NCBI GenBank assembly: GCA_001004005.1
Contig: LCQF01000023.1
Location: forward strand, 1 to 53,116
Direction: 5' to 3'
Source: Parcubacteria group bacterium GW2011_GWA2_49_9
GTDB lineage: Bacteria > Patescibacteriota > Minisyncoccia > Phycocordibacterales > UBA10002
DNA: 53,116 bases
In this document: positions 8,201 through 47,271 of the stretch, piece after piece
Layout of the letters: the number at the start of each line of letters is the position of its first letter
Numbering within the stretch: the stretch's first letter is position 1
Translations under genes and position numbers: made by a program
Notes under the pieces: generated by a model
What the model saw: only the letters and a program-made list of their open reading frames with translations
Databases searched by the model: none
What the model was told of the DNA's origin: nothing

Positions 8201-8353
8201 ATGAGCTTCACCTATAAACCAAAAAGGAAAAAGCGAGCGCGAACGCACGGATTTCTCTCGCGTATGACGACACCGGGAGGCCGAAGCGCCCTTTCAAGGC
8301 GGCGCGCTAAGGGGCGAAAAAAGCTTACCGTGAGCAGGAAGAGAAGCTCTTAG
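8201..8353 (+). CDS. rpmH: 50S ribosomal protein L34
   Basis: Not in the ORF track (50 aa). Manual translation: [50 protein letters not shown]. Classical rpmH-rnpA-yidC-jag order. Confidence 0.9.
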
Positions 8354-8420
8354 GTTCTAGGTTCTAGCAAGACCTCTCTTTTTCTAGAAGCTCAAAGCTA
8401 GTAGCTAAAAGCTTTCCTGT
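8351..8420. repeat. CTAGAAS-theme heptamer hairpin filling the rpmH-rnpA gap
   Basis: taggttctaggttctagc ... ctagaagctcaaagctagtagctaaaagc. It runs from the rpmH stop codon to 1 nt before the rnpA ATG. Confidence 0.6.
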
Positions 8421-8960: not shown

Positions 8961-9700
8961 ATGTTTGCGATGCTGAAAGTGATTTTTTATGTCCCGCTCT
9001 ACAACGGGCTTATTTTTTTAATCGGGGTCCTTCCCGGGCACTCGGGGGCATAGCGGTCATTCTGTTCACGGTTCTCATTAAACTCCTCCTCTCCCCTCTT
9101 TCACATAAAGCGGCGAAATTTCAACTTGAAATGAAGGCGCACGAAGCTGACCTTAACCGCATTAAGGAACAATTCAAAAACGACAAGCAAGCACAGGGCA
9201 AGGCAATTATGGATTTTTATAGAGAGAAGAAGATTAATCCGTTCGCGGGAATCGCCCCTCTTTTCATACAAATTCCAATCGTTATCGCCCTCTATTATGT
9301 GTTTTATGGCGGAGGTCTTCCGGTAATAGACACAGCTCTTTTATACTCATTTGTCCCTGTGCCAACTCCCGATATGCATCTGTTTGGTGTGAATATACTG
9401 GAAAAGAGTCTCGTTCTCGCCATCCTTGCCGGTGTCGCCCAGTTTTTTCAAGCGCACTTCGCTATGCCCCCCGCTCCGCCGAAGACCAGTACCCCTTCTA
9501 TTGGCAACGACCTCGCCCGAGGGATGCATATGCAAATGAAGTATTTCCTACCGGTATTTATGGCGTTTGTCGCCTACGCCGTGAGTGGAGCAGTTGCACT
9601 TTATTTTATAACCAGTAGTCTGTTTACCATCGCTCAAGAAGTCCTTGTCCGGAGGTCACTTGCGAAGGGGCACAACCATAATGCAAATACCGCGAATTAA
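8961..9700 (+). CDS. yidC: YidC/Oxa1-family membrane insertase, interrupted by a 1-nt frameshift at a G5 run (9044-9048)
   Basis: Frame 0 gives MFAMLKVIFYVPLYNGLIFLIGVLPGHSGA*. Frame 2 continues IAVILFTVLIKLLLSPLSHKAAKFQ...INPFAGIAPLFIQIPIVIALY (ORF 9131..9700). One extra G would fuse them. Confidence 0.8.
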
Positions 9701-9772
9701 GAATGCAAATACCGCGAATCAGAAGGTTCGTATTGGCAGTATTCGCATTCCCTATCCGAAGTATTCGCATTA
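9677..9772. repeat. AATGCGAAT-theme inverted repeat filling the yidC-jag gap
   Basis: cataatgcaaataccgcgaat...gaatgcaaataccgcgaatcag / cgtattggcagtattcgcattc...gtattcgcatta. It also encodes the YidC tail HNHNANTAN. Confidence 0.65.
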
Positions 9773-9778
9773 ACTATT

Positions 9779-10291
9779 ATGGATTCAGAACACATTAAAC
9801 AACTTATTGAAGGACTCTTGAAGCATATGCAGGTCTCGGTGCAGAGCATAGACGTATCCGAGTCGGATGGCCGACAGCGCTTTTCCGTTGTTACTCCCGA
9901 CTCGCACATTCTTATCGGAACTAAAGGGGCGCACCTTTCCGCTCTTAACCATCTCATTAAGAAGATGGTTGCGACCAAAGAAAACGCAAAGAAAGACCCT
10001 TCCGCTTCCCCGCTCTCGTCCGGAGAGGGAGAACGGGAGAAGACGTTTTTCGTTGATGTAAACGGCTATCAAGAAGCCGCGCTTGAGAGTGTCAAAAATG
10101 TAGCCAAAATTATGGGTGACCGCGCCCGTTCGTTCAAGACAAGCGTTGAGCTTGACCCGATGTCTTCATACGAACGAATGGTCATCCACTCTTTCTTTCA
10201 GGACGCAAAAGACGTCAAGACGGAATCGGTTGGAGAAGGAGAGCGGCGCCGAGTGGTCATAAAATACACAGGAGAAGGTTCTAGTTTTTAG
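9779..10291 (+). CDS. jag: Jag/KhpB-type RNA-binding protein (KH + R3H)
   Basis: C-terminal R3H-like LDPMSSYERMVIHSFF. Located after yidC. Contains a short inserted low-complexity segment. Confidence 0.75.
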   Translation: MDSEHIKQLIEGLLKHMQVSVQSIDVSESDGRQRFSVVTPDSHILIGTKGAHLSALNHLIKKMVATKENAKKDPSASPLSSGEGEREKTFFVDVNGYQEAALESVKNVAKIMGDRARSFKTSVELDPMSSYERMVIHSFFQDAKDVKTESVGEGERRRVVIKYTGEGSSF

Positions 10292-10709
10292 GTTCTAGCT
10301 TCTAGTTTGGAGATAAGGGAATAGAGCATCTTCATTACTTCAGTGAGCAACGACTCCACTGCTCCATATGAAAGCTTTGCGGTTTTTGATATTCGTTTTG
10401 CAATTTCTATTTGCGTCTCCAGTTCCGCGGCTGACCCGAGTGCGATGTGGAGAAAGTGGCAAAAATCCTTTTTGGTGCTGCGACAACGACCTTCCGCGAT
10501 GTTTGATGGTATGGAAACAACGGCTCGGCGCATCTGTGAGGTGAGCGCGTATCGTTCTTCATTCGGGAACCCCTCGGTGAGTTCATAAACGAGCACTGAG
10601 AGGTCTATTCCCTTCTGCCACACAATTAAGTCTTTATACGATTTGGCGACAGGCGCATTCATAATCATTTCCCTCTTACTAAAAGCTAGAACCTAAAACC
10701 TAGAAGCTA
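10278..10709. mobile_element. Inverted-repeat-flanked cassette carrying the four-helix-bundle gene (IVS-like)
   Basis: Arms are 10278-10307 (ggttctagtttttaggttctagcttctagttt) and 10679-10709 (ctaaaagctagaacctaaaacctagaagcta). They share the complementary core ttttaggttctagctt. Confidence 0.45.
10288..10668 (-). CDS. Four-helix-bundle protein (23S rRNA intervening-sequence protein family; Avd-like fold)
   Basis: YKDLIVWQKGIDL...EERYALTSQMRRAVVSIPSNIAEG...FLHIALGSAAELETQ matches the hallmark pattern of this family. Confidence 0.8.
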   Translation of the reverse strand: MIMNAPVAKSYKDLIVWQKGIDLSVLVYELTEGFPNEERYALTSQMRRAVVSIPSNIAEGRCRSTKKDFCHFLHIALGSAAELETQIEIAKRISKTAKLSYGAVESLLTEVMKMLYSLISKLEART

Positions 10710-11909
10710 TTCTTTCATCTGCAAACTCCACAACGTCTCGCTTCCCTTGTCTATAAAAACAAGAAATTTTTCATCGGAGCTAACCATCGGACGAACAAGG
10801 TCAATCGGGGAACCGCGTTTCCCGCTGATGTCGGAGATGCGTTCTGTCGTACCCGAGGAAAGAGTGATGCTCCACACCTCGTCGGTAAACGGGATGACTC
10901 CTTGATACCACGAATCGGGATAACTCCCCTGCGGAATAACTTTGGGGACTCCGCAATAAACACGGTCGCCACTCTTCGCGAAAGCGCATTTTTCCGGAAA
11001 GGTTGTGACGGACAGGTCACGCGGTTGTCCGTTCGCGTTGTTAAACAAATGTAAGCTCAATGTGGAATCGGGGCTGGCGGAATACAAGATTTCCGTCTTA
11101 ACCGGACTCATTAAGGCGGTAAGTCCCGGGATACCCCGCAGAAGAATAGAGGTTCCTCCCTGTATCGGGTCAAGCAGAAGGAGCATTCCGTCGGCAAAGG
11201 CGGAAGGTTTAGAGAGTAAGAGAATCTTGTTCTCCGATGGCCAAGAAACAAGCCATTCCTTCATCGGAGACCCCCAGAGTTTTACCCTGTTTCCTCCCGC
11301 AAGGTCACTTCGTATGCCTCCAATACCGTCACTTTCTTCCTGAAGGTAAAAGAGTGAATTTCCCGCGGGGGAAACGGTCATATCGGGAAGTCCGCGAGGC
11401 AAAAAAGTCCCCAGAAGCTGTCCATCTCCCTCCGTTGCGCTTGGTTTAATTTCTGCCGAGAAAGATTCTATGGTTTCCCCTCCCTCTCTCACATAACGGG
11501 AAACAAGAGCTGTTCCGGATTTACTCCAGAGGGCTTCATATACTTTTGAAACCGTGGTATTGGTGAGGCGAATCTCTTCGTCCCCCGCCGCCCCAATCTC
11601 ATACACATTGCCGACAGACCGTTCCTGATATCGGACAATCGCTTCCCCGCTCTTGGTCCCGAGTACCGCACCGGCCACCGGCACCTTTGATAACTGGCGG
11701 AGAATCGGCTCAAATGCCCCCGAGCTTGAAGGAGGAAGGATGGTCGGTGGTTCTGTCGTTGGCGGCAACTCTTCACCCGGGGGCGGAAACTCCCCATCTC
11801 CCCCCGAAGGAAGGGGTGTTGGGCGGAAAAAGAAGTACAGAACAATACCGAGCGCCGTGAGTATGAGCACAAGACCGAGCGCTATGAGGATTTTGGTTCT
11901 TCGGGACAT
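10707..11909 (-). CDS. Membrane-anchored protein: Pro-rich linker plus probable beta-propeller-like ectodomain
   Basis: N-terminal TM (ILIALGLVLILTALGIVLYFFF), PPxx linker, then beta-rich repeats. Last gene of the T4SS-like block. Confidence 0.55.
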   Translation of the reverse strand: MSRRTKILIALGLVLILTALGIVLYFFFRPTPLPSGGDGEFPPPGEELPPTTEPPTILPPSSSGAFEPILRQLSKVPVAGAVLGTKSGEAIVRYQERSVGNVYEIGAAGDEEIRLTNTTVSKVYEALWSKSGTALVSRYVREGGETIESFSAEIKPSATEGDGQLLGTFLPRGLPDMTVSPAGNSLFYLQEESDGIGGIRSDLAGGNRVKLWGSPMKEWLVSWPSENKILLLSKPSAFADGMLLLLDPIQGGTSILLRGIPGLTALMSPVKTEILYSASPDSTLSLHLFNNANGQPRDLSVTTFPEKCAFAKSGDRVYCGVPKVIPQGSYPDSWYQGVIPFTDEVWSITLSSGTTERISDISGKRGSPIDLVRPMVSSDEKFLVFIDKGSETLWSLQMKE

Positions 11910-13016: not shown

Positions 13017-13033
13017 GTGAGTGATTTCTTATT

Positions 13034-13156
13034 CCTCCTTTCCTAAAGGAGGTGCCGAGGTCTTCCGAGGCGGAGGATTTAAACACCCCCCCTAGCCCCC
13101 TTTATTAAGGGGGATAAATCCCTCCCCCTAACGGGTACTCCCTTTATGAAAGGGAG
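13034..13156. repeat. GC-rich two-hairpin repeat units (3 hairpin-1 copies)
   Basis: ctcctttcctaaaggag, ccccctttattaaggggg, ctccctttatgaaagggag, and the variable stem ccgaggtcttccgaggcgg. Confidence 0.75.
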
Positions 13157-13191
13157 AATTCCGACTAATCGCGTATGTCCCAATTATACTA

Positions 13192-16033: not shown

Positions 16034-16128
16034 GAAGCTTCTAGCTATTAGGTTTTAGGTTCTAGGACAGGCAAATCAAACGCGAGGACACTTCTTACTA
16101 GAAGCTAGCACCTAGAAGCTGAAAGCTA
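16034..16128. repeat. CTAGAAS-theme intercistronic hairpin (empty, no gene in the loop)
   Basis: gaagcttctagctattaggttttaggttctagg / ctagaagctagcacctagaagctgaaagcta. It spans from the VirB4 stop codon to 9 nt before the next ATG. Confidence 0.7.
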
Positions 16129-17949: not shown

Positions 17950-18430
17950 AAAGTACCAATCAACTAATCAGAACTAATCTACTAATACCTACGAATCAGA
18001 CCAGACGATTTTGCATTAAAGTTCTCTATCCGCACTATGCGATGAGAACGAACGTAAGTACTACCAAAATTAACCAGAATACCCAGTTTAATTCCTGTGG
18101 CCTGAAGATACCTCTGGGTTTGGACAAAGTCACCACTTGGAATAAAACGCTTGGCTTTCAGTTCAAGGATAATCTTGTCCTCTATAAGAAAGTCAACAAT
18201 GTTATTTGTATCCCCAATCCTGTACTCTCTCTTGTAAATAATGCCCGCCTCCTTTAACTTTTGTTCGAGTAGGTCGGCATATTGTTTTTCCCTTGCAAAT
18301 TTTCCCACCTCATTATGGACTTTATAGCAAAGGCCGACTACATCAAACGAAAGGTCAGGATACAGTAGTCCCACCTCTTTTTTCTTATTTGCAGGTATTT
18401 GTAGATTAGTATTCATTTGCAGATTAGTTT
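17950..18430. mobile_element. Inverted-repeat-flanked cassette carrying GxxExxY-like gene 1 (ACTAATC theme)
   Basis: Arm aactaatctactaatacctacgaatcag (17970-17998) versus the complement of atttgcaggtatttgtagattagta (18388-18412). About 22 of 25 positions match by eye. Confidence 0.45.
17982..18416 (-). CDS. GxxExxY-like PD-(D/E)XK nuclease-superfamily protein
   Basis: Start at MNTNLQ.... LLYPDLSFDVVGLCYKVHNEVGKFAREKQYADLLEQKL...IVDFLIEDKIILELKAKR...LGILVNFG. Confidence 0.75.
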   Translation of the reverse strand: MNTNLQIPANKKKEVGLLYPDLSFDVVGLCYKVHNEVGKFAREKQYADLLEQKLKEAGIIYKREYRIGDTNNIVDFLIEDKIILELKAKRFIPSGDFVQTQRYLQATGIKLGILVNFGSTYVRSHRIVRIENFNAKSSGLIRRY

Positions 18431-19110: not shown

Positions 19111-19578
19111 CATAATGCGAATGCCGCAAATACTGAATGCAAATACTGCGAATTAAGAAACACGTGAATTCAATACCCGTTTTGGATAGAGATTTTGTTG
19201 TTGAAAGTTTACGATAAGACCAAGTTTGAGATTGAGAACCGAAAGGTATCGTTGCATCTGATAGTAATCCTCTCGAGTGACGTGATGTTTGGCCTTTAAG
19301 TCAACAACTATTATACCTTCAATAACGAAATCAGGCACATTGCGCCACGCTTTTTCCCCTACAAACGATGGGGGAAGGCGTACTTCACGCGTATACGATA
19401 AGTTTGCTTTTTTTAGTCCCTCTTCAAAGGCATCGGCGTAGGATTGTTCCGTTCGAAAACGGCCCAAGTCATTGTGGACTTTAAAACAGAGTCCGTTGAT
19501 TTTGTACGATAGTTCTGGATACACCACGCCGTCGTTATTTGCAGCATTCGCATTCTTCATTTGCAGTATTTGCATTAT
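19111..19578. mobile_element. Inverted-repeat-flanked cassette carrying GxxExxY-like gene 2 (AATGCGAAT theme)
   Basis: cataatgcgaatgccgcaaatactgaatgcaaatactgcgaatta (19111-19155) versus the complement of ttatttgcagcattcgcattcttcatttgcagtatttgcattat (19535-19578). About 35 of 44 positions match by eye. Confidence 0.5.
19153..19560 (-). CDS. GxxExxY-like PD-(D/E)XK nuclease-superfamily protein (paralogue of 17982..18416)
   Basis: VVYPELSYKINGLCFKVHNDLGRFRTEQSYADAFEEGL...VPDFVIEGIIVVDLKAKH...LGLIVNF. Start is uncertain (19560 or 19575). Confidence 0.75.
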   Translation of the reverse strand: MKNANAANNDGVVYPELSYKINGLCFKVHNDLGRFRTEQSYADAFEEGLKKANLSYTREVRLPPSFVGEKAWRNVPDFVIEGIIVVDLKAKHHVTREDYYQMQRYLSVLNLKLGLIVNFQQQNLYPKRVLNSRVS

Positions 19579-19618
19579 ATTTATCTTTTGACGTTTTGAT
19601 TTATATCCAGTGCCCACG

Positions 19619-19882
19619 TTAGGTCAAACGATTGGAAAGGACATAGGCAATCGCGGCCTGCATCATAAAGATGAAAGGTTTTCCGTTCGGTTTGTAGAAT
19701 GCCAGTGCGGCCGCGAGGCCGGCAATAGGGGCGATAATGAGTACCGCGAGATAAAAAGGCAGGAAATTATACGCGATATATCCCATGCCTATTCCACCCA
19801 CGATATACACAAATTGCTTGATGCTGAACGGCCCAAGTATCTTGTCCTCTATGTTGATGAATTGTGGAACCTGGAACCTCAT
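19619..19882 (-). CDS. PrgI-family (VirB3-like) small membrane protein
   Basis: 87 aa from MRFQVPQFINIEDKILGPFSIKQFVYIVGG..., with two TM helices. The upstream 67 aa in the ORF track are repeat DNA. Confidence 0.65.
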   Translation of the reverse strand: MRFQVPQFINIEDKILGPFSIKQFVYIVGGIGMGYIAYNFLPFYLAVLIIAPIAGLAAALAFYKPNGKPFIFMMQAAIAYVLSNRLT

Positions 19883-19997
19883 ATATATAATGCGAATACT
19901 ACTAATACCGAATGCGAATACCACGAATGAAACTCCCCAAAAGAGACTTTCTGATTTGCAGTATTCGCATTTTCCATTCGCGGTATTTGCATTATGG
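19883..19997. repeat. AATGCGAAT-theme intercistronic hairpin (empty)
   Basis: ataatgcgaatactactaataccgaatgcgaatacc ... gcagtattcgcattttccattcgcggtatttgcattatgg. It starts 2 nt after the upstream stop and ends 4 nt before the PrgI ATG. Confidence 0.7.
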
Positions 19998-21857
19998 TTA
20001 CTGCAAGGGTTCGCGGTACGGGTCAGTTGAGTAACGCTTTTCTTCCCTCGGAAGCGACATAGGAGCCTGTAGTTTTTGGTCAAGGAAATCCTCTTCCTCT
20101 TCCCCGTTCATTTGAGGGGAGTCCGCCGGCTGGCGGAGAGGTGGGGTATTTGATTCGCTCTGCGGTCGGGTTTTATCCCCATCCCCATCCCCCTTAGCAA
20201 AGGGGGCTGCCTTGGGGGGTTGTCTGGTAAAGGGGGTGCTCCCGTCTGCGGGAGCGGGGGTTGTAATACCCCTCCTGCCGGAGACGGCAGTGCTCCCCTT
20301 ATTAGGGGAGATAGCCTTCCCTTCGGGGGGTGGAATGTTTGGAATTGCCGGCTCAAGTTTATTAATCGGATATTTCGGAAGAGGCGAAGACGACGACCCG
20401 ATAGTGTTTATGGAAGGCTTCCATCCGGTAGGCCCTATGGGGGAAGCTTTTGACTGATAGCCTTTAGCTGTTAGAGAAGAGCTTGGGAGAGTGGGGGCTG
20501 CGATTCTCGGCACAGGGACGATACCTTTAGGATTTTCAATATCCCGAAGTACGTCCGCTCGGCTTAAGGGTTCTTCTTCTCCCCCTCCCCTATCCCCCTT
20601 ACCAAAGGGGGTGCCTCCGTCCGCGGAGGCGGGGGTTGTTTTTCCCATACCAAAGGGGGTGCCAGACAACCCTCCTGCCGAAGACGGCAGTGCTCCCTTT
20701 AGTAAGGGAGATGCGGCGAGACCGGGGGTTGTCCCCACTTGTTTTTTCAGGATATTCTCCCCCATATTCCACTTCGCTCCGGCGGAGTACGGAGTAGAAG
20801 AAGCTGATAGTGGAATAGTCGTAGACTGCTTATAGCTTTTAGCTTCTAGTTTATTCTGACTAGAACCTAAAACCTGAAACCTAGCACCTGTTTCTGGGCT
20901 AGAACCTTGAACCTGAAAGCTAGAAGCTGGCTTCGGCACCACGCTCGGTTTCGGAATTGAAAATGAAGTTCCCGCTTCCAGCCGTGGACCAACTCCTACC
21001 GGAGGAGGCTGCACCACTTCCGCATGCATGCTGCGGAGCGATTCGCGCACCTTCACGAGAATCTGCGAACTCACATCGCGGGCGATTTCTCTCGCTCGCT
21101 CCTCGGGAACGCGGAGGCGGTCGGCAAGGTTCTTGATGAAGTCGGCAGGGTGCGTGAGTCCGAGGAGGACAAGCCCCGTCTCGCTCGCGAGCGCGGCCAT
21201 CTGGTCCACGTGCAAGAGGTACTTCTTGGCGATGGCTTGAATGGCATTCGCGGTATCTACCGAAGAAACCGATTGACGGAGGCCCATCGGCAGGTCTTCA
21301 AACGCATTCCGGAGTTCTTCCTCCGAGTACTTTGTTCCCGCGGCGATACGAATAAGCGCCCGTATGTGATTAGGTTCTAGCTTCAAGCTGTTAGCTTCTA
21401 GTTTATTCTGACTAGAGCCTTGAACCTGAAACCTAGCACCTGTCTCTTGGCTAGAACCTGAAACCTGAAAGCTAGAAGCTGGTTTTATCGGCTCCGGCAC
21501 TCTACCCTCTTTAATCGGATACCCCGCCTGTTTCAAAATCGGAAGAACCGGGTCAAATAGTTTCGTTTGGAGTTCGTAGGCAATCGTGGGGATTTTCGGC
21601 ACATTGTCTTCCTCAATGTTTTTGTCTTGTTGTATGAACGCGACGAGCGTATCCGGTGAGGCCTCCCCTTTCAGAACACGAAGTACTCCTTCACAGAGCG
21701 CTCCGGTTTCAGCGAAGACAAACCCCTGTTCGGCGGCAATAGTCGTTGGGAGAATATGTATTTCCGCCACCCCTTTATCAAGGAGCGCGCTGAATACTTT
21801 CTCCGGAAGCGATTCCAGAAAGAGTGATAGTCTTTCTCTTGCGTCTTGAGGATTCAT
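19998..21857 (-). CDS. Hypothetical protein: ~300-aa structured N-terminal part plus a long tail built largely from repeat-element insertions
   Basis: The ORF stays open through two ~90-bp CTAGAAS modules and many GC-rich units (peptides PLLKGALPSSAGG, GTPFGKGD, APFAKGDGDGD). Ends ...DPYREPLQ. Confidence 0.6.
   Translation of the reverse strand: MNPQDARERLSLFLESLPEKVFSALLDKGVAEIHILPTTIAAEQGFVFAETGALCEGVLRVLKGEASPDTLVAFIQQDKNIEEDNVPKIPTIAYELQTKLFDPVLPILKQAGYPIKEGRVPEPIKPASSFQVSGSSQETGARFQVQGSSQNKLEANSLKLEPNHIRALIRIAAGTKYSEEELRNAFEDLPMGLRQSVSSVDTANAIQAIAKKYLLHVDQMAALASETGLVLLGLTHPADFIKNLADRLRVPEERAREIARDVSSQILVKVRESLRSMHAEVVQPPPVGVGPRLEAGTSFSIPKPSVVPKPASSFQVQGSSPETGARFQVLGSSQNKLEAKSYKQSTTIPLSASSTPYSAGAKWNMGENILKKQVGTTPGLAASPLLKGALPSSAGGLSGTPFGMGKTTPASADGGTPFGKGDRGGGEEEPLSRADVLRDIENPKGIVPVPRIAAPTLPSSSLTAKGYQSKASPIGPTGWKPSINTIGSSSSPLPKYPINKLEPAIPNIPPPEGKAISPNKGSTAVSGRRGITTPAPADGSTPFTRQPPKAAPFAKGDGDGDKTRPQSESNTPPLRQPADSPQMNGEEEEDFLDQKLQAPMSLPREEKRYSTDPYREPLQ
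20841..20930. repeat. ~90-bp CTAGAAS module with AGCTTCTAG/CTAGAAGCT termini (copy 1, in-frame in ORF)
   Basis: Near-identical to 21393-21482 by eye. Encodes PASSFQVQGSSPETGARFQVLGSSQNKLEA. Confidence 0.75.
21393..21482. repeat. ~90-bp CTAGAAS module (copy 2, in-frame in ORF)
   Basis: Same termini and same internal order as 20841-20930. Encodes PASSFQVSGSSQETGARFQVQGSSQNKLEA. Confidence 0.75.
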
Positions 21858-33993: not shown

Positions 33994-36123
33994 TTAATCA
34001 AAAAAGATTATCTTCCCTCCCCCTTCCAGGTAATTTTCAGCCTGCAGGAATTCTTCGTCAATGTCAAAGATGAATTCCGACGGCACCGTTACTTGTCGTG
34101 AGCCGAAAATGGTTCGGACCCCGGCGTATGTCAGGAAGACTTTCTTCTTTGCTCTGGTGACTGCCACATAAAACAGGCGGCGCTCCTCCTCGGCCGCCCC
34201 TTCGTCAAGCGTTTCTCCCATACGTTCGTGCGGGAACAGCCCTTCTTCAAGGCCGGAAATAAATACATAGGTAAATTCAAGTCCTTTTGACGCATGCACC
34301 GTCATAAGCCGTACCGCGGGTTTCTCCTCTTGGAGCTCGTCCTGGTCGCTCTGAAGCGCTACGTCGGAAAGGAATTGATCTACTGCCGCAGTTCTGTCAT
34401 TCCCCTGCTCCCGCCCCTCTCCCTTTCGGGAGCTCCCCTCAAGCAGGGGAGCTGGGGAATCCAGTTCTTTTTGAGTCCCACTCTGGCCCCCCGCATAGTC
34501 TACGACTACTCCGCTCTGCTCCGTCGCGAGGATGACAGACGGCGTGGTTTCAGGGGTCACTGCGTCGTACCTCGTCGCGAAGGTTACGAGTTCCTTGATA
34601 TTTTCCAGACGTTCCTCGTCTTCCGAACCTCCTTTTTTGAGCTCCGCCTCAAGTCCGCTCGCGCTCACAATCCACTTAATAGCCTCCGAAAGCGGCAGAC
34701 TGGAAAGTCTTTGGCGGAATTCCGCTAGCAGTTTTTTAAACGTAGCAAGTTTTTCGCGCATGGCGGGCGGAAGCTCCTTTTCTTTCCCCGCAAAGATTTT
34801 GAGAAGCGTCACCTTGCCAATACCACGCGGAGGAACGTTGATAATCCGTCGCACGTCACCGATACTCTCGGGGTTTTCAGCGGCACGGACATAGGAAAGG
34901 ACATCTTTCACCTCTCTGCGTTCAAAAAAGCGCACTCCAAGAACCTGATACGGCACTTCCTCTCGGAGAAAAGCTTCTTCAAGCGCGCGGCTTTGGAAGT
35001 TCGCCCTGAACAGGACGGCAATAGCGGAGGGGGATGCGCCCTCGGCGATAAGCTGTTTGGAACGCTGTGCGATAAAGGAGGCTTCCTGCACTTCGTCATA
35101 GGCGGTAAACAGTCCCACCTTCTCCCCCTCCCCGTTTTTCGTGAAGAGCGTCTTCTCTCTCCGCATTTTATTTTTCTCAATAATGCGGTTTGCTACCGTG
35201 AGAATGGTCTGGGTAGAGCGGTAATTTTCTTCAAGCAGTACTATCTTTGACTTCGGATAGTCCTTTTCAAAATTCAGAATGTTTTTGATACTCGCTCCCC
35301 GCCAGCTGTAGATGTTCTGGTCAATGTCGCCGACTACCGCGATATTCTTCTCCGCGTCGGCAAGCGATTTCGCGATGATGTATTGCACGTGATTCGTGTC
35401 CTGATACTCGTCAATATGGATATAGCGCCAGCGTTTCTGATAGTGCGCACGCACCATCTCATCTTTCTGCAATAAGACGGCCGTTTTTAACAAAAGGTCG
35501 TCAAAATCAAGCGCCTTTTCTTTGCGGAGAATCGCCTCATACTTTTCCCAGATATCCGCGACTATCGCCGGATAGTAGTCTCCTTCGGAGCGCGCCTTAA
35601 ACTCTTCGCAGGTCACCATCTTCCCTTTCTCACGGCTAATTGACCCGAGAATTTTCCCCGGCTCAAACTGTTTCGGGTCAAGGTCCGTTTCCCTAATCGC
35701 CTCTTTGAGGGCACGTATAGAATCACTACGGTCAAAAATAGTAAACCGTTTGGAAAGACCGAGCCGCTGGCTGTTTTCTCGCAGAATATATACGCCAAGC
35801 GAGTGAAACGTACCGAGCCAAGGGAAGCTGATAGCTTTTAGGTTCTGACTTCTAGGATGTTCCATTCCCTCGGTTTGGCCTAGAAGCTGAAAGCTAGAAC
35901 CTAAAAGCTGGCGGACTCTCTCGCGCATCTCCTTCGCCGCTTTATTCGTAAAAGTGATGGCAAGTATTGACTCTGGAGCGACCCCCTGCTTAATGAGGTG
36001 AAGAATTCGGTGCGTGATTACCCGTGTCTTGCCCGCTCCCGCTCCGGCGACAATAAGAAGGGGGCCCTCGGTATGCTCCACGGCTTCCCGTTGCCGCGCA
36101 TTGAGTCCGAGAAGATAGTCCAT
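33994..36123 (-). CDS. pcrA: UvrD/PcrA-family ATP-dependent DNA helicase, with in-frame repeat insertions
   Basis: Start MDYLLGLNARQREAV. Walker A AGAGAGKTRV. DEYQDTN. VHASKGLEF. Insertions at 35827-35912 (CTAGAAS hairpin) and ~34397-34515 (MITE half-copy plus TAGTCTACGACTA). Confidence 0.9.
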   Translation of the reverse strand: MDYLLGLNARQREAVEHTEGPLLIVAGAGAGKTRVITHRILHLIKQGVAPESILAITFTNKAAKEMRERVRQLLGSSFQLLGQTEGMEHPRSQNLKAISFPWLGTFHSLGVYILRENSQRLGLSKRFTIFDRSDSIRALKEAIRETDLDPKQFEPGKILGSISREKGKMVTCEEFKARSEGDYYPAIVADIWEKYEAILRKEKALDFDDLLLKTAVLLQKDEMVRAHYQKRWRYIHIDEYQDTNHVQYIIAKSLADAEKNIAVVGDIDQNIYSWRGASIKNILNFEKDYPKSKIVLLEENYRSTQTILTVANRIIEKNKMRREKTLFTKNGEGEKVGLFTAYDEVQEASFIAQRSKQLIAEGASPSAIAVLFRANFQSRALEEAFLREEVPYQVLGVRFFERREVKDVLSYVRAAENPESIGDVRRIINVPPRGIGKVTLLKIFAGKEKELPPAMREKLATFKKLLAEFRQRLSSLPLSEAIKWIVSASGLEAELKKGGSEDEERLENIKELVTFATRYDAVTPETTPSVILATEQSGVVVDYAGGQSGTQKELDSPAPLLEGSSRKGEGREQGNDRTAAVDQFLSDVALQSDQDELQEEKPAVRLMTVHASKGLEFTYVFISGLEEGLFPHERMGETLDEGAAEEERRLFYVAVTRAKKKVFLTYAGVRTIFGSRQVTVPSEFIFDIDEEFLQAENYLEGGGKIIFFD

Positions 36124-39443: not shown

Positions 39444-39479
39444 TTTCTTTTCTGTAAGCTAACAGCTAGAACCTAAAAG

Positions 39480-41057
39480 CTATAAGCTATTCCCCAACTG
39501 CTTCGGCCGATACTGCAACGCTTCCATTAGGTCGCCGGTCTGTACATCGTCGTGCCCCTCAAGGTCGGCGACGGTGCGGGCAAGCTTGATAAGGCGATGG
39601 TAGGAACGGGCAGAAAGGTCGTGCTTCTTGGCGGCGAGATTGAGAGCTTGTTTAACATCATCGGAAAGAGGAATTGCGACAGCGATGTCCCGCGGGCCAA
39701 CATCACTGTTGGTTTTGAACGGCAGTTTTAATTTTTTATACCGTTCCTCGGCTCGCGCACGAGCGACCGATACTTTTTTGCGTACCGCTTCACTTGTTTC
39801 TTCACTTCCCCGCCCCTCGGTGAGCTTCTCATGCTCTACGATGGACACTTCGGTCCACAAGTCAATGCGGTCTACAATCGGGCCGGAAATTTTTCGCTTG
39901 TAGCGGTCAATCTGGTGCTGTCCGCAACTGCACACTTTTCCTTTCACCCCGTTATTCCCGCAGGGACAGGGATTCATGGCGGTAATCAATGTGAAATGCG
40001 CGGGAAATTGCGCCGAACCTTTGACGCGAGCGACGGAAACAACACGGTCTTCAAGCGGTTGGCGGAGTGCGTCAATCACCCTTCGTTCAAATTCGGGAAA
40101 TTCATCCAAGAAAAGCACTCCTCGGTGCGCGAGGGTGATTTCTCCCGGCTTGGGAATGGAACCACCACCCACAAGCGCGATATATGAGGCAGTATGATGC
40201 GGCGCGCGAAATGGCGGATAGGTGATAAGAGGTTCTTGAAGTGCTCCCGCGACCGAATGAATGCCGGTCACTTCAAGAGCCTGTTCAATATCCAGCGGGG
40301 GCAATATGGAAATAAAAGCTTTGGCGAGAAGTGTCTTCCCTGTGCCCGGTGGTCCCCACATCGCGATGTTATGTCCACCCGCCGCGGCGATTTCAAGTCC
40401 GCGTTTCGCCGTTCTCTGTCCCTTCACGTCGGCAAAATCCACCTGATACTCCCGCGTTCCCACTTCAAATGTGGTTAGTGGAACCGGTTTCATTTTCCGC
40501 TTCTGAATAAACGGGCGCTCATCATCGGGGAGGATATCCTTCTCTGTAAGGTGTGCGGAGAGGTCCCAAAGATTTTTCACTCCATAGACGTCAATACCAT
40601 CAATAAGCGCCGCCTCTTTCGCGTTTTCAAGCGGGACATACACTTCTTTAAAACCGGAACGTTTCGCTTCGCGGACAATCGGCAAGACTCCATCTATTCC
40701 CTGCACCATACCGTCAAGTGAAAGTTCTCCGACAAACAATTTTCCCTTCACGTCCGCGGGAAGGCATTTGGAGGCGATTAAGTAGCCGACCGCCATCGGA
40801 AGGTCAAAGCTCGGCCCCTCTTTCTTCGTGTCCGCGGGAGCGAGCGAAATGACGATTTTGTGATTTTTCTGTTTCGGCGACTTAAATCCGGTATTTTTTA
40901 TCGCCGCGCTGATGCGGTCTTTCGCTTCTTCCACCGCTTTGTCGGGGAGGCCCACTATGGAAAACGCGTTGAGGCCCTTAGAGAGGTCAACCTCAACGCG
41001 TACCAGAGAAGTCTTCAGGAGATGGACTTGAGCGGAACTGACAGTTGCGAAACTCAT
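39480..41057 (-). CDS. comM: YifB/ComM-family Mg-chelatase-like AAA+ ATPase
   Basis: N-terminal Lon-protease-like domain, Walker A GPPGTGKTLLAKAF, Walker B VLFLDEFPEF. Start at MSFATVSSAQV. Confidence 0.88.
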   Translation of the reverse strand: MSFATVSSAQVHLLKTSLVRVEVDLSKGLNAFSIVGLPDKAVEEAKDRISAAIKNTGFKSPKQKNHKIVISLAPADTKKEGPSFDLPMAVGYLIASKCLPADVKGKLFVGELSLDGMVQGIDGVLPIVREAKRSGFKEVYVPLENAKEAALIDGIDVYGVKNLWDLSAHLTEKDILPDDERPFIQKRKMKPVPLTTFEVGTREYQVDFADVKGQRTAKRGLEIAAAGGHNIAMWGPPGTGKTLLAKAFISILPPLDIEQALEVTGIHSVAGALQEPLITYPPFRAPHHTASYIALVGGGSIPKPGEITLAHRGVLFLDEFPEFERRVIDALRQPLEDRVVSVARVKGSAQFPAHFTLITAMNPCPCGNNGVKGKVCSCGQHQIDRYKRKISGPIVDRIDLWTEVSIVEHEKLTEGRGSEETSEAVRKKVSVARARAEERYKKLKLPFKTNSDVGPRDIAVAIPLSDDVKQALNLAAKKHDLSARSYHRLIKLARTVADLEGHDDVQTGDLMEALQYRPKQLGNSL

Positions 41058-45607: not shown

Positions 45608-45694
45608 CCATACGCAATTTTTTTAGAGCGGTACACCTCGTGTATCGCTTTTTCTTACCTAAAAGCTAGAACCTAAAAGCTAAAAGCCGTTTTT

Positions 45695-47168: not shown

Positions 47169-47271
47169 TATCAGTTGTTAGATTTAGGATTAAAGATTTA
47201 AGTAAGACAACACTGGGGCTTCGGCTTCTCTCCTCTTCCTAAAACCTAGAAGCTAACAGCTAAAACCTTCT

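Follow-up and report, generated by a model that had tools for sequence, protein, structure and literature searches.

The 53,116-nt stretch of DNA analyzed here (the window) is contig C23 (LCQF01000023.1) of the genome of Parcubacteria group bacterium GW2011_GWA2_49_9 (G000; 0.91 Mb, 44 contigs, 49% G+C). Between the convergent 3′ ends of jag and of p400, a conserved hypothetical gene, it carries a cassette of 433 nt overall, in which a small gene of the S23p/23S rRNA intervening-sequence (IVS) protein family, predicted to encode a four-helix bundle (4HB), is framed by two inverted arrays of tandem heptamers. We lean toward the reading that this is an IVS-type cassette whose protein probably recognizes its own heptamer arrays, in a manner analogous to that of Ssn nucleases and NTS repeats.

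A 4HB gene framed by heptamer arms

Each arm is 31 nt long and is built of four tandem heptamers CTAGAAS (STTCTAG on the opposite strand), and the two arms, lying 371 nt apart, are ~90% complementary (Table 1). An earlier note, made from the window sequence, had described them correctly except for the start of the left arm, which it put at 10277 and which should be 10276, but their build from tandem heptamers had escaped it. The complementary core that it saw in both arms is the 16-mer TTTTAGGTTCTAGCTT, found exactly at 10286-10301 (+) and 10683-10698 (-), and at ≤3 mismatches this 16-mer has 26 matches in the window, against 0.6 expected from shuffles. Host and cassette genes read their ends out of these arms: the last four codons of jag (GSSF) and its stop (10289-10291) are read from the left arm, which on the other strand holds the last six codons and the stop (10288-10290) of the 4HB open reading frame (ORF), ending ...KLEART. 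Both of these termini had been recognized before; p400, to which the same had been ascribed, contributes its stop codon alone (10707-10709), as the last triplet of the right arm. The 4HB gene has no stop codon of its own, this being supplied by the arm, and a Shine-Dalgarno-like AAGAGGGAA is located 3-4 nt upstream of its ATG.

In profile searches, the 4HB protein matches PF05635 (23S_rRNA_IVP; E = 1.6e-37, 128.4 bits, cut-off 33.8) and TIGR02436 (E = 6.6e-37, 126.1 bits, cut-off 24), which upholds the family assignment that had been made from its motifs alone, and it is the single PF05635 copy in the whole genome searched. The hallmark motif SQxRRA..SIPSNIAEG is present, with Q45, R48, N56, A58, E59, G60 and E82 invariant among 20 aligned relatives. 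Among solved structures, XCC0516 from Xanthomonas campestris is the nearest in sequence (2GSC; phmmer E = 1.9e-24). An AlphaFold2 model built with 20 relatives in the alignment (pLDDT 92.4) has helices at residues 15-31, 36-61, 66-92 and 102-124, and a Foldseek search with this model returned 2GSC (TM 0.79-0.90), 2RLD (BT_0352; TM 0.68-0.81) and the bAvd proteins (4DWL, 8UB7; TM ~0.7-0.8). The S23p relatives 2GSC and 2RLD each have five chains per PDB entry, and S23p proteins have been described as pentameric (PMC4990558); by homology, the 4HB protein would be expected to form an Avd-like pentamer. No match to a nuclease or transposase family was obtained in the profile searches, where the matches were PF05635 and bAvd-like models, and a look-up of public assemblies gave no record of an identical protein.

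Recurrence of gene and arms

To place the cassette among its relatives, 67 non-redundant PF05635 genes were gathered from 24 related genomes; related genomes are labelled G001-G037 and loci in them by L numbers, and the genomes compared are draft metagenome-assembled genomes. A flanking inverted repeat scoring ≥12 accompanies 84% of these 67 genes, against 6% of 342 control small genes in G000, with median scores of 17 and 7.5, respectively, and the arm period is nearly always 7, with a few arms of period 8. A scan of 185,579 species' genomes yielded at least 598 relatives, and in a wide sample of 79 loci (Patescibacteria, Bacteroidota, Acidobacteriota, Clostridia, Proteobacteria, Planctomycetota, Verrucomicrobiota and others) 72% have arms scoring ≥12, the period being 7 in 42 of 49, 8 in 4 and 9 in 1. 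The contention of the earlier note that a common mechanism of insertion or propagation underlies this layout, rather than coincidence, is therefore borne out as far as a recurrent design is concerned, while for the 4HB, GxxExxY and GIY-YIG cassettes described below a shared mode of insertion would be plausible by analogy.

Protein clades match the heptamer word, not the genome of origin. A maximum-likelihood tree was made of 62 proteins, with the last 8 residues trimmed because these can be arm-encoded. On this tree the 19 heptamer classes require 19 changes (minimum 18), where shuffles average 25.0 and none of 300 reaches 19, and the genome label is scattered, requiring 27 changes against 25.3 in shuffles. 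Several words can be found in one genome, as in G013, whose genes carry CTAGAAS, GTAGRKG and ACGTGTA. The arm "theme" that had been supposed to be shared across gene families did not hold up, as the arms are specific to the protein clade.

The clade of the G000 gene (SH-aLRT 99%) has as its other members solely genes of G010, G002 and G013, with 84-86% amino acid identity, and all four of these cassettes have CTAGAAS arms and occupy four different host sites. When the cassettes are aligned, homology extends from the host stop, TAG+CTTCTAG.., to ..CTAGAACCT, and the flanks are unrelated. At the p392/p366 junction, G008, G001, G002 and G004 have repeat-free spacers of 5-12 nt, whereas G010 has a 440-nt arm-gene-arm insert that reaches from the stop to the next ATG; since the empty junctions lack repeats and the filled one has both, the arms arrive with the gene. 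Here p392 ends ..ENSF*, inside the arm, just as Jag ends ..GSSF* in G000. Comparison of related genomes, which had been suggested as a way of finding an empty site, has thus given empty sites as well as the same cassette at other sites, and gene plus arms very likely constitute one mobile unit. A target-site duplication is unreadable, as the TAG stop of the host gene runs into the first repeat unit.

Read outward, 42% of arms offer a stop in every frame; the share is 11.5% for shuffled arms and 23% for arms read inward. The proposition that arms exist to give three-frame stops is only partly borne out, this being a tendency and not the reason for a period of 7. No arm period among the related cassettes is divisible by three, and across the 67 related cassettes the upstream arm, in gene sense, is in every case the strand poor in C (A 40%, T 28%, G 19%, C 12%).

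Dispersed arrays and the cognate gene

The earlier note had suggested looking for other copies of the arm pair. The arms are indeed not private to the cassette: genome-wide, G000 has 65 CTAGAAS arrays of 4 x 7 nt by strict criteria and 78 by looser ones, against 0-2 in shuffled genomes, and most of them are without a gene, some as hairpins with 5-65-nt loops and others as solo arrays. Counted by period, arrays in G000 number 97 for period 7, and 14, 3, 1, 1, 0 and 0 for periods of 5, 6, 8, 9, 10 and 11. Where an array is stop-adjacent (-20 to +12 nt of a called stop, the gene calls being simple longest-ORF calls), it reads STTYTAG in gene sense in 25 cases and antisense in 1, and both cassette arms obey this polarity, one array belonging to jag and the other to p400.

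Across genomes, the abundance of a word goes with its gene. Counted as a three-unit pattern with ≤2 mismatches, CTARAAS gives 120 matches in G000, 67 in G010, 67 in G013 and 41 in G002, precisely those genomes that encode a homolog of ≥84% identity, while genomes without a homolog have a mean of 5.2, most of them zero (Spearman 0.63). In G009, where the nearest gene reaches 69% identity and is framed by AGCTTAT arms, 30 matches were counted. The three-unit word ARCGTRT is found 106 times in G013 and 41 times in G016, the two carriers of that clade, 3 times in G000 and not at all outside the genus. Word patterns in G000 and G016 are thus opposite, and G013, with both genes, has both words. Gene-less arrays are most abundant in genomes that encode the cognate clade, although the link is not absolute.

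Conservation and folding

Among the four cassettes of the clade, dN/dS is 0.03-0.10, with synonymous sites saturated, and the arms are 81-97% identical, compared with 26-55% at fourfold-degenerate sites of the same cassettes. Arm sequence is conserved well beyond neutral expectation, and the protein and arm sequences are both under purifying selection. The word and its inverted arrangement are retained, and not the stem, as expected for a recognized motif. In a 461-nt transcript, the arms form the closing stem in both the minimum-free-energy and the centroid fold (z = -3.9), so the loop-in-a-stem fold proposed earlier is recovered, but the stem shows no sign of selection on pairing.

A scan of 10150-10850 found no promoter- or terminator-like site, which together with the Shine-Dalgarno-like AAGAGGGAA fits expression by read-through from p400, and a search of Rfam gave no match in the cassette region. 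An intrinsic terminator was considered as an identity for the arms and rejected, as the same interval has no site of the type made by a G+C-rich stem and a T run. A gene for RNase III is present in G000.

The jag/p400 site in related genomes

The order yidC-jag-[site]-p400 is kept across the genus and the order, while the content of the site is highly variable and the arm word changes from genome to genome. A 4HB gene is found here in G000 and, at 56-61% identity, in G008 and G004; distant 4HB genes occupy the site in G013 (31%) and, in opposite orientation, in G017 (27%). In G009, G010 and G014 (L007, L008 and L013), the site is filled by a 93-aa GIY-YIG gene (PF01541, E = 1.5e-16), and these inserts are flanked by inverted hairpins TGTCATTCCCGCGGAGGCGGGAATCCAG, which agree at 26 of 28 positions with the Neisseria NTS consensus CGTCATTCCCGCGMAVGCGGGAATCYRG. 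In G014, what is left of an AGCT-type array pair lies on either side of the Ssn cassette. The site holds ORF-less filler in G015 and short gene-less hairpins of their own heptamers in G016 and G003, and outside the genus the jag/p400 gap measures 40-170 nt. The C-terminal tail of Jag after ..IKY is different in every relative and follows the local arm. As further observations, a solo NTS-type hairpin is at the site in G002 (L010), and G001 (L014) has a 1.3-kb insert encoding a MerR-type helix-turn-helix protein (243 aa) and a DUF4325/STAS-like protein (105 aa).

Proposed mechanism and alternative explanations

The unit, heritable and relocatable, consists of an upstream arm of four heptamers, a ribosome-binding site, a 4HB gene lacking a stop codon and promoter of its own, and the inverted arm. 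In this model, the protein would be the sequence-specific partner of the repeat family, as Ssn is with NTS/SRM hairpins and RAYT with REP, and host enzymes would do the cutting or copying, because the 4HB protein has no recognizable nuclease or transposase domain. That the protein reads the heptamers is a shade more probable than its opposite. Expression would occur by read-through from p400, the arms in the read-through transcript would form a ~28-bp stem, and RNase III would cut it, releasing the cassette RNA from the host message; for such RNase III processing, as in rRNA IVSs, we see an even chance. Gene-less hairpins and solo arrays would be derived from cassettes, the solo arrays being retained at sites where the end of the host gene has come to lie inside the arm. 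A more speculative extension, which we consider possible but doubtful, is that S23p/IVP pentamers read tandem heptamers in a sequence-specific manner, each protomer perhaps taking one 7-nt unit, and that every protein clade has co-diversified with a word of its own.

Several observations weigh against this model. No catalytic domain is recognizable in the 4HB protein that would explain mobility. About 22-32 CTAGAAS matches occur in each of G020, G035, G014, G008, G015 and G025, which have no close 4HB homolog, and a profile search of the G025 genome gave no PF05635 match at all despite its CTAGAAS matches. Further heptamer families of G000, namely AAGGATT (~10 arrays), TTGAAAA/AATTATC/AAATTGG (~15), GTTAAC types (~10) and AAATCWT (~9), have no cognate 4HB gene in the assembly, so arrays persist or arise gene-free, though relatives hold cognate genes for some such words (AATCCTT, GTTAAC, AACCAAT). 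The related genomes are not independent samples, and the match of clade to word could stem from simple linkage by descent. With respect to pairing, adjacent left and right arms in G000 match at 78% on average, compared with 81% for pairs from different loci (95th percentile 90%), a spread that takes in the 89-90% of the two cassette arms, and G.U-compatible changes, which would indicate compensatory pairing, are in no excess on either strand (45 vs 45) among the 214 mismatches counted in 56 cassettes; cognate arms thus pair no better than others, and a selected stem is not claimed.

A quite different account would have the arms be resident, as the host's own species-specific 3′-end hairpins of jag and p400, of a terminator-like or REP-like nature, with the gene a passenger that landed in the loop as in a permissive hot spot. 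It draws on cargo-free arrays of the family that start at the stop codons of many genes, on the gene-less hairpins of own heptamers that G016 and G003 have at the jag/p400 site, on the unrelated cargo found there in relatives (Ssn/NTS, the MerR pair, ORF-less filler), and on the nesting of the G014 Ssn cassette between AGCT-type array remnants. However, the same clade with the same arms is present at three other, non-orthologous sites, where homology stops at the arm tips, different 4HB clades in one genome carry different arms, the four empty p392/p366 junctions are array-free while G010 has arms plus gene, and terminator-like features are lacking. We dropped this account, which we now regard as quite unlikely, on the strength of the filled and empty junctions, the boundary alignment and the clade-specific arms. 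Simple coincidence, in which two independent solo arrays after convergent stops happen to bracket an unrelated small gene, would draw on the facts that solo arrays after stops are common and that any two family members are ~80% complementary; yet in G010 and G002 this clade shows the identical arm-gene-arm arrangement again, there between co-directional genes, and arms recur at 84% of related genes, a recurrence that refutes coincidence and leaves it very improbable.

Alternatively, the elements could make up a domesticated post-transcriptional system instead of a selfish element, in which the 4HB protein is a host RNA-binding factor, the arrays mark the 3′ ends of mRNAs, with effects on their stability, termination or processing, and the copy at its own gene is autoregulatory. 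This would suit the 25 to 1 polarity of arrays relative to the upstream gene, the strong selection on protein and arm sequence, and the conservation of the word rather than of pairing; moreover, the structural relative Avd acts in an RNA-protein complex (PDB 8UB7), and Xanthomonas arrays are near stops, on the sense strand, and transcribed (PMC4692102). Against it stand the patchy distribution of the genes (0-10 per genome, none in 4 of 20 genus members) and the turnover of sites between close relatives, the occurrence of the same build inside rRNA genes and the insertion of arrays in frame inside ORFs, and host genes that terminate inside the arm would likewise account for the polarity; we think this explanation unlikely. 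A last candidate, that the 4HB protein is the Avd accessory of a diversity-generating retroelement (DGR) acting in trans with the reverse transcriptase (RT) of the genome, was suggested by weak bAvd matches (PF22296, E = 2.6e-4; NF033474, E = 8.7e-6), by the Foldseek similarity to bAvd (TM ~0.7-0.8) and by a DGR-type RT on contig C36 of G000. The Avd scores fall below their cut-offs (PF22296, 21.9 vs 40; NF033474, 26 vs 80), compared with the 128 bits for PF05635, the RT is on another contig, where it has a neighboring bAvd-like ORF (PF22296, E = 2.2e-5) and a target gene of its own, and no template repeat/variable repeat (TR/VR) pair is near the cassette. The sub-cut-off scores and the Avd-like ORF that the C36 RT already has led us to reject this reading, which is scarcely credible.

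To our knowledge, no function has been assigned to S23p/IVS proteins, which have been known since the 1990s and for which there are two crystal structures. If each protein clade does read its own heptamer word, the function of these proteins would be joined to the unexplained excess of heptamers in bacterial intergenic DNA, and the partnership would amount to a mobile or semi-selfish element of a new kind, whose protein lends specificity and is not itself an enzyme. The IVSs of rRNA, its best-known insertions, would then be just one of the places where a far more general cassette settles, a cassette that inserts between genes in reduced genomes of the candidate phyla radiation (CPR) and in many other phyla, and the proteins might serve as programmable readers of short nucleic-acid words. 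The tests on which this analysis draws are the orthologous-site series, the clade-to-word tree, the contrast in abundance of two words, the comparison of arms with synonymous sites, and the negative result on pairing.

Relation to known systems

The cassette resembles the rRNA IVS of the Coxiella burnetii, Leptospira, Brucella and Xanthomonas type in its S23p/PF05635 protein, its size (433 vs 444 nt), the ~28-bp stem formed from terminal inverted repeats with the ORF in the loop, and the heptamers directly before the ATG. The IVS of Coxiella, 444 nt in length, encodes an S23p protein, has a terminal stem of 28 bp and carries the heptamer GACAGAT three or four times in tandem shortly before the ATG; RNase III cleaves it within the stem (PMC4990558), and RNase III excision of the present cassette is predicted. 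Unlike an IVS, which lies in an rRNA helix, the cassette is between protein genes (jag/p400), its arms give its neighbors their stop codons, and those arms are part of a family of ~78 arrays that is mostly gene-less. Two loci in relatives, L044 (G037) and L045 (G012), have a PF05635 gene with CTGGAAR arms inside the 16S rRNA 5′ domain, after ..GCAAGTCGAACG, and therefore the same build occurs as a classical IVS in the lineage. A survey of rRNA inserts in CPR genomes also lists 23S_rRNA_IVP ORFs (PMC11270868).

Ssn nucleases cut single-stranded DNA beside hairpin repeats that flank their own genes and are dispersed genome-wide (PMC11893778). Our cassette is like the Ssn/NTS-SRM system (Chenal et al., 2025; PMC11893778) in having a small gene between copies of a dispersed repeat whose abundance is gene-linked, and an Ssn gene between NTS-like hairpins fills the same jag/p400 site in G009, G010 and G014. 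It is unlike that system in its protein, a four-helix bundle that lacks a nuclease fold, in its repeat, where tandem heptamers take the place of a single hairpin, and in that the link between protein and repeat is inferred. Similarly, REP/REPIN-RAYT systems share with it species- or clade-specific intergenic inverted repeats, a single or low-copy partner gene flanked by repeats, and gene-less copies that greatly outnumber those with the gene; unlike them, the cassette has no Y1 transposase domain, its arms are 7-nt periodic rather than imperfect palindromes, and a single genome can house many protein clades that differ in their words. A miniature inverted-repeat transposable element was also considered and rejected, as no transposase is present.

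Over-represented intergenic heptamer repeats include the cyanobacterial short tandemly repeated repetitive (STRR) sequences. Heptamers that are over-represented between genes have been described as GGGAATC in Xanthomonas and GGGGAYT in Nostoc (PMC4692102) and as TAACTGA in Beggiatoaceae (PMC4679880). The Xanthomonas arrays are ≤50 bp from stops, on the sense strand and transcribed, with 70-75 convergent pairs (PMC4692102), while forward TAACTGA repeats have stops in all three frames (PMC4679880). The arrays of G000 are like these in having 2-6 tandem 7-nt units at gene boundaries. The papers on heptamer repeats name no partner protein, and neither S23p nor a four-helix bundle is mentioned in PMC4692102 or PMC4679880, whereas here the arrays are tied to PF05635 clades. 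Full-text searches gave no publication linking the PF05635 family to heptamer arrays, although absence there is not proof.

With the bAvd proteins of DGRs (4DWL, 8UB7), the 4HB protein shares the four-helix-bundle fold, and the five chains of 2GSC and 2RLD are like the Avd pentamer; it is unlike them in its 10-16% sequence identity, in Avd scores below the cut-offs and in having no adjacent RT, TR or VR, and the SxPSNIAEG hallmark is specific to PF05635.

Other features of the window and genome

The window carries the origin-proximal cluster dnaA / rpmH-rnpA-yidC-jag, and the coordinates of the cassette, its neighbors and the gene-less CTAGAAS arrays are collected in Table 1.

Table 1. Coordinates of the cassette, its host genes and the gene-less CTAGAAS arrays in the window
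Feature	Coordinates	Strand	Remarks
jag/khpB (KH + R3H)	9779-10291	+	PF01424 R3H, E = 2.9e-18; NF041568 Jag_EloR
Left arm, downstream in 4HB sense	10276-10306		Heptamers GTTCTAG TTTTTAG GTTCTAG CTTCTAG (10278-10305)
4HB gene (S23p/23S-rRNA-IVS protein family), 126 aa	10288-10668	-	PF05635, TIGR02436 and PDB 2GSC matches
Spacer, 10 nt, with Shine-Dalgarno-like AAGAGGGAA	10669-10678	-	Directly upstream of ATG; sequence read
Right arm, upstream in 4HB sense	10678-10708		Heptamers CTAAAAG CTAGAAC CTAAAAC CTAGAAG (10679-10706); abuts p400 stop
p400, conserved hypothetical gene	10707-11909	-	Co-directional with 4HB gene
Gene-less CTAGAAS hairpin	8347-8411		Directly after rpmH stop
Gene-less CTAGAAS hairpin	16038-16125		Between two co-directional minus-strand genes; proximal arm begins 1 nt past stop
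Gene-less CTAGAAS hairpin	35828-35914		Array search
Solo CTAGAAS array	39452-39486		Abuts stop of 531-aa minus-strand gene
Solo CTAGAAS array	45659-45686		9 nt from stop of minus-strand gene
Solo CTAGAAS array	47239-47266		6 nt from stop of 522-aa minus-strand gene

The GxxExxY cassettes at 17955-18428 and 19111-19584, to which the earlier note had likened the 4HB cassette, do share its layout, with other arm words, and their arms too are genome-wide families. Periodic arms of the GCRAAT word have 59 paired matches genome-wide against 2 in a shuffle; arms at 19111-19153 and 19537-19584 bracket the GxxExxY gene at 19195-19515, and gene-less hairpins of this word are found in the yidC-jag spacer (9680-9775) and at 19881-19996. 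Arms of the ACTAAT word (9 vs 1 in a shuffle) bracket the GxxExxY gene at 18051-18356.

CTAGAAS arrays at 20829-20926 and 21374-21478 are inside a 619-aa ORF (19998-21857, -; no Pfam match), where they are translated in frame as ..PASSFQVQGSSPETGARFQVLGSSQNKLEAKSYKQ.. in two near-duplicate copies; the frame stays open because CTGAAAC replaces CTAGAAC where TAG would be in frame. The p392/p366 spacer of G000 itself (13017-13191 of the window) holds a chain of small G+C-rich hairpins, tccctttcataaaggga, gggggagggatttatccccc.. and cctcctttaggaaaggagg. On contig C36, the DGR occupies 1-2445 and has an RT with an LGNVTSQ motif (PF00078, E = 3.5e-23) that is cut by the contig end, the adjacent bAvd-like ORF, a template-like copy rich in Asn, and a target gene that ends in ..GYLPDSAHPNLRARV. 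This RT has an odd insert, ..NWIPASARLDSARLAGMT.., resembling a translated NTS-type hairpin.

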